From positions 352,001 through 416,000 of the forward strand of contig JAEOUA010000006.1 of the NCBI GenBank assembly GCA_016839555.1: a DNA stretch of 64,000 nt, given 5' to 3'. The translations under genes and the position numbers were made by a program. Below the pieces are notes generated by a model. It worked only from the letters and a program-made list of their open reading frames with translations, did no database searches and was not told the DNA's origin. Positions 4,152 through 57,181 of the stretch are shown here, one piece after another (the first letter of the stretch is position 1; each line of letters opens with the position of its first letter). The stretch is from Promethearchaeota archaeon. GTDB taxonomy: Archaea > Asgardarchaeota > Lokiarchaeia > Sigyniarchaeales > SOKP01.

Positions 4152-5819
4152 ATGGGAGTTAAGAACCAAAAATTGGATGCTCTAAGAGCATATGAGAGGG
4201 CGTTATTCAGAGGTTGTGGGTTTTCATATGAAGATCTGCAAAAACCTAGAATTGCGATAGTTAATTCATGGAATGAAGTGAATCCTGGACATATCCATCT
4301 TAGAAATTTAAGTGCTTTCGTAAAAGAAGCTATTAGAAAGCATGGCGGCACGCCAATGGAATTTAATACAATAGGCGCATGTGATGGCATAGCAAATTCT
4401 GGAAATTTCTCAAAATATGTTTTGCCTTCAAGGGAAGTAATCGCAAATTCAGTTGAATGCATGATAAAAGCCTATAATTTTAATGGAATGGTAATGTTAT
4501 GCTCATGTGATAAAATCATTCCCGGAATGCTGTTAGCTGCTGTAAGGTGTGATATCCCCACTATTTTCCTAACAGGAGGGATAATGGAGGCTAAAACATT
4601 TACAGAAGGCCCTTTAAAAGGAAAAACTTTTGTCACCAGCGATATTAAGGAAGCAATTGGCATGTATAAAGCGGGAAAATTAACTTCGGAAGAGTTTTTT
4701 CAAATAGAATCTGAAACATGCACATCTCCTGGGGCTTGTAATATGATGGGTACCGCTAATACAATGGCTTGCATCGTAGAAGCAATCGGCTTATCTTTAG
4801 CTGGATGCGCTACTGCTGGTGCTCTTAGTAAAGAACGAGAAAAATTATGTCTTGAGACTGGGAAAGTAATATTAGAACTAATTGAGAAGAAAATCACCGC
4901 ACGAGATATAATCACTCCAATCTCAATGGAAAATGCTATAAAAACCGCCCTATCATTTGGAGGATCTTCAAACATGGTATTACATATGTGTGCTCTTTCT
5001 CATGAAATAGGAGGAAATTTGAATCATTTTGATTTTGAAAGTTTGAGTAGATCAGTTCCATTATTGGCAAAATTTAAACCCGCTTCAGACTATACTCTTA
5101 CCGATTTTCATAAAGTGGGAGGTGTGAAAAGAATAATGAAACATCTTTCACCTTTATTAGATTTATCAGCGATAAATGTAAGGGGCAAAACTTTGAAAAA
5201 ACATTTAGAAGATATACAAATCAAGGGGAGCCCCATAGTGAGAACTTTGGAAAATCCCTTAGAAGAGCAAGGGGGAATTGCAGTTTTAAAAGGAAACTTG
5301 GCACCAGAGGGGGCGATAGTAAAGCAGAGTGCCTTAAGCCCAAATATGAGATACCATAAAGGAGTCGCAAGAATATTTAATTCCGAGGAGGAAATAAAAG
5401 ATGCGTTATATGCGGGAGAAATAAAGGAAGGTTCTATATTAGTTATACGATATGAAGGTCCAAAAGGTTCTCCTGGAATGCGAGAATTATCTATTCCCGC
5501 AGCAATGTTAATTGGGATGGGATTAGGAGAATCGGTTTCTATGATAACAGATGGTCGTTATTCTGGAGCTACAAAAGGCCCTTGTATCGGTCATGTCTGT
5601 CCAGAAGCAATGGAAGGAGGTCCTATTGCGATAGTAGAGAATGGAGATATCATAGAAATTGATATTAATAATAGAGAGCTGAATCTGTTAGTTTCTAAAG
5701 AAGAGATTAAAAAAAGATTTAACAAGTGGACTCCTTTAAAACCTAAAATAACAGAAGGATATCTAAATATCTATCGAAAACATGTAGGTTCAGCTAAATA
5801 TGGAGCTTACTTGAAATGA
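4152..5819 (+). CDS. ilvD: Dihydroxy-acid dehydratase
   Basis: [44 protein letters not shown]. Confidence 0.93.
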
Positions 5820-47426: not shown

Positions 47427-47603
47427 GGTCCATTAGCTCAGCCTGGTTTAAAGGTTTCTTACAAGCTTGACTACAAGCGCAGGTCTTATAAATGACCGAT
47501 GGACATACAAAGAAAAAAGTGTCCATTCTCAATAAAAACCTGAGATCCGGGGTTCGAAATGAATCTCTGATTAAGAAATTTCATGAAAATCCCCGATGGA
47601 CCA
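47427..47603 (+). tRNA. tRNA-Ile(UAU) with three introns (47451..47474, 47492..47537, 47559..47589)
   Basis: Acceptor GGTCCAT/ATGGACC plus A73; anticodon stem CAGGT/ACCTG with loop CT-TAT-AA; T stem CGGGG/CCCCG; each insertion folds into BHB-type geometry; 76 nt after splicing. Confidence 0.85.
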
Positions 47604-48736: not shown

Positions 48737-50110
48737 TTAAGAATTTATTTGAAAATAGGCTTTTTCTAATCTTTCAACAGCCAAAATAATATCCTTTTTA
48801 GTAGATCCAATAGCTGCATTCATGACGATATATGGGATTGGATAATTTTCAATACAGTTGCCAAAGGTTTTTTGATTTGGGTCATACACTCTTGGACCTG
48901 TAACTCTGAGGTTATAGAGAGCCCCTCCAAGTTCAAACAATTTTTTTTGTGTAAGATTTTGTAAGCTCATTGCTACTGCCACAGGATTAAAAATATCTAA
49001 TACTCTTTCATTAATTTTTTTAGCAAAGTTATATAATAGATCTTCCAATAATTTCCGATTTTTTTGTTGCTTTTTAATAAGCTTGTTATATCCTTCAATA
49101 CCAAGTGATAAAATTGAAATTAAGAAATTCACTACTGGCGATGCGGAAGCTCTTCCTGGATAGGCTCTACTAATTTTTTCGATGGTTTCTTCATGTGGGG
49201 AGGCGATCAAAGCACCACCTACAGGAGTAAGAAAGTTTTTATCTGTTGATTGAATAATAGCATCTACCCTTCCCGCATCGATAGCAGAACGGATCAATCT
49301 CATCCATTCAATACTTTGTACTCCATAGGCATTAACAACAATATGAACAAGATTTTTTCTTTCTGCAAGTTTACTAATTGCCTTTACATCATCAGCTTCC
49401 CTTGGAGGAAAAAAACTCGTAAAAGACACTATGGCGAAACAATTTTCATTTAATCCACTTTCAATATCTTCAATGGGTATTCTGACAGCATCCCCGAAAA
49501 GTTTTCCCTCCACAATTTTTGGGTAAAGCCCAACAAAATCTATAGATTTTAAAATCGAGTTGTGATCTAGCCGTGGAATTAAAACCGTTCTTTTCGTATT
49601 CGAATCATTTTTGTTTCTATTTGGTTTTAAAGCAGTTAAAGCTAACGCTAAGGACATACCGGTAGCAACTGGAGTGATAATCGCGGCTTTAATATTAGGT
49701 AATCCAAAGTTTCTCATAATATCTCTTGCTAAGTAATTCGTGATTTCGTACATGATTGAGCCCCCAGGAGCTTTAGGCTGTGGAGCCGTTAAAAAACCAC
49801 TCCTTCCTACTCCATGGCAGAAACCACCTGAGATTTTTAAATGCAAGGGAGATGCGATCCTTGCCTCTCGTTCGCCAACTTGAGACGCATTCATATCCTT
49901 ATCTGTATCCATCTGAGAGAGCACATTTAATAAAAATTCAATTTGTTCATCGGTCCATGGATTAGTTGGTACATTTTTTTGCTCAAATAAAATTTTGATT
50001 GGTTTTAAATAATTTTTTAATACTAATTGTCCTCTATTAAGTATATTTTCGGGAATTTTCGAATGTTTGAAATATTTCATAATTTTATTTAGATTTACCA
50101 TAAGTATCAC
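48737..50110 (-). CDS. spcS: O-phosphoseryl-tRNA(Sec) selenium transferase (SepSecS)
   Basis: VGEREAR, HGVGRSG....QPKA.G, ATGM, NAYG, QSTDKNF..PVGG (PLP Lys), YPGRAS. Confidence 0.95.
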   Translation of the reverse strand: MILMVNLNKIMKYFKHSKIPENILNRGQLVLKNYLKPIKILFEQKNVPTNPWTDEQIEFLLNVLSQMDTDKDMNASQVGEREARIASPLHLKISGGFCHGVGRSGFLTAPQPKAPGGSIMYEITNYLARDIMRNFGLPNIKAAIITPVATGMSLALALTALKPNRNKNDSNTKRTVLIPRLDHNSILKSIDFVGLYPKIVEGKLFGDAVRIPIEDIESGLNENCFAIVSFTSFFPPREADDVKAISKLAERKNLVHIVVNAYGVQSIEWMRLIRSAIDAGRVDAIIQSTDKNFLTPVGGALIASPHEETIEKISRAYPGRASASPVVNFLISILSLGIEGYNKLIKKQQKNRKLLEDLLYNFAKKINERVLDIFNPVAVAMSLQNLTQKKLFELGGALYNLRVTGPRVYDPNQKTFGNCIENYPIPYIVMNAAIGSTKKDIILAVERLEKAYFQINS

Positions 50111-50239: not shown

Positions 50240-50362
50240 TGGCGGCCCTCGAGGGGAATCGAACCCCTACCCCTTCGCAGGGTAACTGGATTTGAAGTCC
50301 AGCGTCAGAGACCACTTATCTTTCGCAAGCGAAGCGCTTCCAAAATCCGACCGTCAAGGGCC
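50240..50362 (-). tRNA. selC: tRNA-Sec(UCA), 9/4 fold, encoded CCA, ~30-nt D-arm insertion (probable intron 50316..50345)
   Basis: 9-bp acceptor GGCCCTTGA/TCGAGGGCC, G73-CCA, 6-bp anticodon stem with CT-TCA-AA loop, long variable arm, 4-bp T stem; immediately upstream of SepSecS. Confidence 0.92.
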
Positions 50363-55762: not shown

Positions 55763-57181
55763 ATGAATATAGAAGATAAAATTCCTATTAATATGGGCCT
55801 GCTTGGGCATATTGATTCTGGAAAGACTGAAATCGCAAAATGTTTGTCAGAAATAATTTCTACTGCAGGGATCGATGCCCATCCGCAAAGTAAGGAAAGA
55901 GGGATCACAATAGATTTGGGATTTACCAGCTTCATGTTAAATAATTATTTAGTAACCTTAGTTGATGCTCCAGGACACGCAGACTTGATAAAAATTAGCG
56001 CCTCTTCATTAGAAATCATAGATTTAGCCTTAATGGTCATTGATATTAATAAAGGGCCACAAATCCAAACTGGAGAACATTTAATTATGATTGACTCGTT
56101 AGGTATTACAGATATTGTGGTTCTTTTAAATAAAACCGATTTATTTGAGGGGAATATCAAAGATCAAATCAAAAAGACAAGAAAATTTTTCGCAACAACA
56201 TCATTTGGCTCAAATGTTCCAATCTATCCAGTATCCGCAAAAGAAGGAACGGGTTTTGAAGAATTAAAAAAAGGGTTACTTGAAATTATAAAGGATTTAA
56301 CTATCAAGAGGGATTATAAAGGAGATATAATAATTCCCATAGATCATCATTTTATAATTAAAGGGAGAGGCGCGGTGATAACGGGGACTTTAGTGTCTGG
56401 AAAGTTATCAATAAACCAGCAATTAACAATCCTTCCTATTAACTCTACTACTCGGGTTAAAAATATCCAAATATTTCATCAAAATGTTGAGTCCGCACGT
56501 GCGGGACATAGAGTGGGCATAAATTTAAAAAATATTGAGATCAAAAATATATTTCGCGGATGCTATGCGACTGATAATGTTAATGCTTTTGATATAAGTA
56601 GAATATTCGAAATTGTGGGTGAGAAAACTGATCTTTTTAAGCATGAAACGAAGTTTGGCACCCAATTGCATGTTACAATTGGAATGGACACCACTATTGG
56701 AAAAATATACCCCTTTAAAGAATTAGATGGAAAAAAACTTAAATCCTCAATTAAAGCTCATGAGAATGGATTTAAAGCCATTTTAATTTTAAATGAAAGA
56801 ACTTTGATTAGAAAAGGGCGAAATATTATGCTCTTAAGCAGATTAGATTTGCCCCCTAACACATTACGTATATTAGGATCCGCGAAACTCACAAGGACTT
56901 ATGATGCACCTCCATTATTCTATAAATATAAAATTAAAAAGGGTAAAATTGATAATCTCGATCATCCTCAAGGAATTATCTGTACAGGGTTGGCTCAGAG
57001 TATTGAAGGAGCAAGAAAAATAGTTGGCAGAGAATTAGAATCCCCCTTTTCTCAAGTTATTGATACATTTGGAACTAAAGGAGCAGTTATTATAGGAATT
57101 GAGGATAAAACTCTCAATATACAAAGAAATGAGCAAGTAGTTCTCAAAGAACTCAGGAGTTTTCGATTAAAATTCCATTAA
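55763..57181 (+). CDS. selB: Selenocysteine-specific elongation factor SelB/eEFSec
   Basis: GHIDSGKT, STAGID.HPQSKERGITIDLGF, DAPGH, QTGEH, DHHF.IKG.G.V.TGT. Confidence 0.93.
   Translation: MNIEDKIPINMGLLGHIDSGKTEIAKCLSEIISTAGIDAHPQSKERGITIDLGFTSFMLNNYLVTLVDAPGHADLIKISASSLEIIDLALMVIDINKGPQIQTGEHLIMIDSLGITDIVVLLNKTDLFEGNIKDQIKKTRKFFATTSFGSNVPIYPVSAKEGTGFEELKKGLLEIIKDLTIKRDYKGDIIIPIDHHFIIKGRGAVITGTLVSGKLSINQQLTILPINSTTRVKNIQIFHQNVESARAGHRVGINLKNIEIKNIFRGCYATDNVNAFDISRIFEIVGEKTDLFKHETKFGTQLHVTIGMDTTIGKIYPFKELDGKKLKSSIKAHENGFKAILILNERTLIRKGRNIMLLSRLDLPPNTLRILGSAKLTRTYDAPPLFYKYKIKKGKIDNLDHPQGIICTGLAQSIEGARKIVGRELESPFSQVIDTFGTKGAVIIGIEDKTLNIQRNEQVVLKELRSFRLKFH

Follow-up and report, generated by a model that had tools for sequence, protein, structure and literature searches.

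The closest described system is the tRNA-Sec gene of Lokiarchaeota, which contains a 31-nt intron in the T-loop (Mariotti et al. 2016, PMC4989117; Santesmasses et al. 2017, PMC5330540); when reported in 2016, this was the sole case of an intron in an archaeal tRNA-Sec. A sequence-only reading of the DNA described here had correctly mentioned such a T-arm intron. The published gene and the one described here belong to the same group and share the 9/4 fold, a 7-bp D-stem, a 4-nt D-loop, and an insert of ~30 nt at a non-canonical site; in both loci the gene encoding EFSec is located upstream on the opposite strand (about 6 kb away in the published locus (PMC4989117) and 5.4 kb away here). However, the published intron interrupts the T-loop, whereas the intron that we propose is located in the D-stem, between positions 15 and 16 (15/16); our gene has no T-loop intron, although many of its relatives have introns at both 15/16 and the T-loop.

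The D-arm is interrupted in other Asgard tRNA-Secs. The tRNA-SeC genes of Atabeyarchaeia and Freyarchaeia have been listed with three introns and one intron, respectively, with positions not given (Valentin-Alvarado et al. 2024, PMC11291895, Supplementary Data 4). We mapped the D-arm introns from the listed coordinates: Atabeya-1, Atabeya-2, and Freya (L130, L133, and L134) each have one in the D-loop, at 19/20, whose central helix is 4 bp long. Variable-arm and T-loop introns are also present in the Atabeya tRNA-Secs, as is a T-loop intron in the Freya tRNA-Sec. These genes share with ours an interrupted D-arm; they differ in the position of the intron (19/20) and in its sequence, which is unrelated. 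The earlier suggestion that a D-arm site might be new is therefore too broad for Asgard tRNA-Sec; for the narrower case of 15/16, our search of open-access text located no description of an intron at this site in tRNA-Sec.

More distant comparisons are also informative. According to the main text of a preprint (bioRxiv 10.64898/2026.10.13.758758), D-arm introns are the most common class of missed introns in Asgard tRNAs; these resemble the insert described here in that they are overlooked by annotation programs, have bulge-helix-bulge (BHB) boundaries, and have been gained and lost repeatedly, but neither a tRNA-Sec example nor a Lokiarchaeia family is mentioned in that main text. The non-canonical BHB/HBh' introns of Thermoproteales that are cut by (αβ)2 EndA (PMC4090602, PMC5829648) share the motif geometry and the enzyme type; they differ in that 15/16 is absent from the positions given in the review text, and the host gene here is tRNA-Sec. 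Sun et al. describe unusual insertions, up to 142 nt, in some Lokiarchaeia tRNA-Secs, which the accessible portion of their text does not term introns. With abundant D-arm introns already known in Asgard, the intron at 15/16 in tRNA-Sec is a modest advance, that is, an added site in a known type of element.

The window (the whole stretch of 64,000 nucleotides that was analyzed) contains these features:

50346..50362, minus strand: tRNA-Sec exon 1 (9-nt acceptor strand, C8-G9, and D-stem positions 10-15)
50316..50345, minus strand: putative tRNA-Sec intron, 30 nt at 15/16 (BHB geometry and fold of the spliced product)
50240..50315, minus strand: tRNA-Sec exon 2 (G16 first, encoded CCA last)
48737..50101, minus strand: SepSecS, 454 aa from ATG 50101 (PF05889, E 6e-116; TIGR03531, above cut-off)
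55763..57181, plus strand: EFSec/aSelB, 472 aa (PF21440 aSelB_III)

The tRNA-Sec gene (50362-50240, minus strand; 123 nt with the insert) is the only tRNA-Sec detected in the genome, which is 92% complete. As the sequence-only reading had stated, it is located directly upstream of SepSecS, with the start codon of the latter 138 nt downstream on the same strand. This arrangement is found in 80 of the 87 loci with enough flanking sequence (some of which are duplicates of one genome), mostly with 22-35 nt between the genes. A search against Rfam returns a tRNA-Sec match of 45.3 bits (E 1.7e-7); disruption of the D-arm by the insert keeps this score just below the gathering threshold of 47. ARAGORN misses the gene without its intron mode and, with it, miscalls the gene as tRNA-Arg.

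The gene has the UCA anticodon, G73, and long variable arm of an archaeal tRNA-Sec, and, as had been noticed, 36 nt separate the D-stem strands GTCGGA and TCTGAC. When 50316-50345 are removed, the remaining 93 nt fold as a 9/4 (acceptor/T) cloverleaf with a 7-bp D-stem and a 4-nt TGGT D-loop, also as in archaeal tRNA-Sec and as had been predicted from the letters, and ARAGORN identifies the spliced sequence as tRNA-SeC(tca). Exon 2 includes the TGGT loop (50314-50311), the 3' D-strand (50310-50304), and the anticodon TCA (50295-50293), followed by the long variable arm, a 4-bp T-stem, G73, and the encoded CCA.

BHB geometry places the intron of the window gene at 15/16. In the central helix, AGAT (50321-50318) faces exon GTCG (50351-50348) with three of four pairs and a G13·A mismatch, so the central helix is imperfect, as first described. 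It is flanked by two 3-nt bulges, GA|T (50347-50345) and AA|G (50317-50315), by a 4-bp inner helix h' in the intron (50344-50341 paired with 50325-50322), and by a 2-bp exon helix h (C8-G18/G9-U17). Because A15 is repeated, junctions at 14/15 and 15/16 yield an identical product; we rejected 14/15 for this gene, since it allows only one of the four central pairs vs three at 15/16. Owing to the G13·A mismatch, the intron is not classed as a strict BHB (four central pairs between two 3-nt bulges); we classify it as a relaxed BHB, for which three central pairs are the minimum, judged by its central helix (H) with 3/4 pairs, its 4-bp h' and 2-bp h, its two 3-nt bulges, and the restoration of a canonical tRNA, equal to the intron-less orthologues, when the insert is removed at the cut sites. 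By itself, the window gene provides weak evidence for a BHB intron: P = 0.013 for three central pairs and a 4-bp h' relative to shuffled introns, and, according to the main text of the preprint (10.64898/2026.10.13.758758), a 3-of-4 central helix alone is common by chance and the relaxed class is permissive. The insert hairpin is present in the minimum free energy (MFE) fold of the precursor; the insert and D-arm alone fold no better than chance (z -1.4).

The orthologues extend the analysis from one gene to a family. Within the same Lokiarchaeia family, about 50 genomes have a 29-34 nt insert at 15/16 or 14/15. In a class-wide pattern search that misses inserts >30 nt, 90 genomes of this family were matched, 67 with exactly the spliced form and 23 with an insert; the same pattern, with the same length limit, matched seven genomes outside the family, none of which has the insert. 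When named genomes were scanned, an insert of 29-34 nt at the site was found in 52 stretches, most of them titled Promethearchaeota. NCBI titles among the matches suggested a wider range (Thorarchaeota, Hodarchaeota, Hermodarchaeota, Odinarchaeota, and Chlamydiae); we rejected this range because L040 is G021 and L070 is G034, both of this family, and the other-titled matches included in the SepSecS tree group with its members.

Both search patterns were blind to the BHB. Nevertheless, the central helix has all four pairs in 45 of the 47 distinct intron-bearing genes (6.1% for shuffled introns), and the full hBHBh' motif is found in 38 (0.9% for shuffled introns); 42 of the genes have the site at 15/16 and five at 14/15, and all other registers score zero. 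The five genes with the 14/15 site have a different insert sequence, and their helix, bulges, and inner stem are each displaced by one base; in one of these (L063), only the 14/15 register rebuilds the D-stem. This coordinated shift speaks against a retained loop, which would not be expected to move in step with a cut site. (The 14/15 intron, 32 nt long, is seen in the tRNA-Secs of L053, L058, L063, L067, L068, and L073; chromosome CP070831.1 contains two of these copies, L058 and L068.) In the central helix, three genes have a two-sided change from C12-G to U12-A; in the inner helix, both sides have changed at +2:-7 (U-A to C-G in two genes) and at +4:-9 (G-C/U-A/A-U). The 3' end of the intron is nearly fixed (A at -2, U at -3, and A at -4 in 42/42 of the 15/16 genes), and mean identity is 93% in the exons vs 56% in the middles of the introns. 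The orthologues are kin, so these counts overstate independence.

Together, the orthologue pattern and the BHB geometry support the intron reading and the boundaries 50316-50345 that had been proposed at the outset. The 30-nt insert is most likely a BHB intron at 15/16, and we consider it very probable that it is a non-canonical archaeal tRNA intron that is spliced.

In the mechanism that we propose, the 5' D-strand (G10-G13) of the precursor would give up its pairing with the 3' D-strand and pair instead with the 3' end of the intron. The BHB would then form from the exon helix (C8-G18/G9-U17), the central helix, the bulges GA|U and AA|G, and the intron hairpin; the central helix would be the relaxed GUCG/AGAU here and GUCG/CGAU in most relatives. 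(αβ)2 EndA would cleave both bulges, and RtcB would ligate A15 to G16; we infer this cleavage and ligation from the predicted motif and the encoded enzymes.

The genome contains genes for RtcB and for two EndAs, the latter on G000 C3 and C4. One EndA has the catalytic residues (Y139, H147, and K178), and its K57 is aligned with the specific-loop K44 of its best solved relative, 3p1z/3ajv (E 5e-40) from Aeropyrum pernix. The second EndA lacks the catalytic His, so it is probably a structural subunit in an (αβ)2 arrangement. Only (αβ)2 and ε2 EndAs with the specific loop cleave relaxed motifs, and this loop is kept in Asgard (PMC5829648); the host of our relaxed BHB has RtcB as well as an EndA that carries this loop's lysine and is probably of the (αβ)2 type.

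The Sec machinery is also encoded: in addition to SepSecS and EFSec, the genome contains a PSTK-like protein (E 7e-47, below the family cut-off), a SelD gene containing a single in-frame TGA, and four genes of the VhuD type, each containing two TGAs, that is, UGA selenoproteins. From its gene content, the Sec trait appears intact and live. The sequence-only reading had connected splicing to Sec insertion on the grounds that PSTK reads the D-arm in eukaryotes; recognition of the D-arm is correct, but it is not confined to eukaryotes, because archaeal PSTK also binds the 7-bp D-stem and compact tetraloop of tRNA-Sec (PMC3035459). The 7-bp D-stem and UGGU tetraloop would form only after ligation, so the synthesis of selenocysteine, and with it that of selenoproteins, would depend on the splice.

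The earlier description of a relaxed BHB holds for the window gene; it does not extend to the family, in which the central helix has all 4 bp in 40 of the 42 distinct genes with the 15/16 site. The window gene shares the C-to-A change at -6 with G005 (L002), a congener, and with L152, a contig from a metagenome; the presence of this change in three independent sources indicates that it did not arise by sequencing error and is not confined to the window, and the relaxed central helix is a trait of these three near kin only. L152 was the single DNA contig recovered when we scanned metagenomes for spliced or unspliced copies of these exons; it contains the intron, its exons are identical to those of the window gene, and its intron differs at four of 30 positions with the inner helix kept. 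In the window precursor, U(+1)-A(-6) pairing is possible and generates a competing slipped register, and the energy of the BHB conformer exceeds the predicted MFE (an extended-D-stem fold) by 5.4 kcal/mol; the gap is 3.6 kcal/mol in the second G·A gene tested and 1.0-2.2 kcal/mol in most relatives tested. We consider it unlikely that in the G·A lineage the insert is either retained as an extended D-arm or spliced so slowly that selenocysteine synthesis is gated.

The first of these possibilities, that the BHB was weakened in this small lineage and the insert is retained in a working tRNA-Sec, fits the precursor MFE, which holds a 6-bp D-stem extended by the insert hairpin, and the fixation of the G·A mismatch in the window gene, L002, and L152. 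However, the remainder of the BHB is kept in all three (the GAU strand, the bulge A, and an h' that includes U-A/U-G and G-C pairs), drift is seen in the intron but not in the exons, which remain identical, PSTK recognizes a compact tetraloop, and the EndA of this genome is of the type that cleaves relaxed motifs; we regard retention as very unlikely. We assign an even smaller chance to slow or conditional splicing, in which the G·A allele would be a selected throttle on selenocysteine synthesis: the larger gaps to the BHB conformer in the two G·A genes and the location of tRNA-Sec just upstream of SepSecS are in its favor, but sister species are many times without the intron, or have lost it, with the Sec system in place, a canonical relative (L066) has a larger gap (6.6 kcal/mol), and nothing ties the intron to a selenium signal. 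A pseudogene or assembly error, with the working tRNA-Sec in the unassembled part of the 92% complete genome, has a negligible probability and is largely refuted by the same insert and mismatch in the independent assemblies L002 and L152, the intact exons (identical to those of L152), and the conserved position beside SepSecS.

Returning to the spliced intron, we used a quick tree of SepSecS from 59 linked loci (a sample that is enriched for intron bearers and includes a few duplicate genomes) to map the states of the 15/16 site; the state changes 13 times, with at least 10 changes forced by well-supported branches. The conserved intron ends are compatible with a single origin and, after it, either exact loss on repeated occasions or allele transfer. 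In one locus (L043), an intron-less 5' tRNA-Sec relic (about 65 nt; 4765-4819) is located 3.1 kb upstream of a full two-intron gene (1516-1672; both on the minus strand), with three ORFs without Pfam hits between them; the arrangement resembles the outcome of an insertion in which the 5' allele was replaced and is a single case that fits allele replacement. The L043 contig is titled Chlamydiae bacterium SM23_39; its SepSecS groups with the same archaeal family, so the contig is probably mis-binned. We found no copy of the intron or of a 5' tRNA-Sec relic elsewhere in the genome described here, a result that gives no support to a recent transposition event inside this genome; no viral contig in the collection searched matched the tRNA-Sec D-arm/anticodon pattern, so a virus-borne origin is without support from that collection.

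Mapping the introns in the tRNA-Secs of the relatives, as had been suggested, places sites at 15/16, 14/15, 37/38, and the T-loop within the same family, with the latter two occurring in several combinations. Five loci (L135, L136, L137, L144, and L148) have an anticodon-loop intron (about 37/38), some with a T-loop intron as well. One genome (G017; L009 and L147) contains two tRNA-Sec copies, one without introns and the other, located at a contig end, with two; bin contamination is a possible explanation.

Other tRNAs encoded by the genome described here are also interrupted. The tRNA-Phe(GAA) gene (G000:C7:243891-243993, plus strand) has a 29-nt intron at 15/16 with a 4/4 central helix and is miscalled by ARAGORN as tRNA-Leu; D-arm introns are present in tRNA-Pro(TGG) (C12:329021) and tRNA-Glu(CTC) (C5:597028). 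Within the window, a tRNA-Ile gene (47427-47603, plus strand) has a TAT anticodon that is split by three introns; its exons join to a 76-nt tRNA-Ile(tat).

Because the insert hides the gene from ARAGORN and lowers the Rfam match below its cut-off, surveys of the Sec trait in Asgard can undercount tRNA-Sec. The family also provides a natural series for EndA specificity, that is, the same exons without an intron, with a strict BHB, with the G·A BHB, and with a BHB shifted by one base. The known picture of tRNA splicing and Sec synthesis is unchanged; two adjacent sites, 15/16 and 14/15, join the T-loop and 37/38 sites in the tRNA-Sec of one Lokiarchaeia family, and introns of this type are routine in the lineage.
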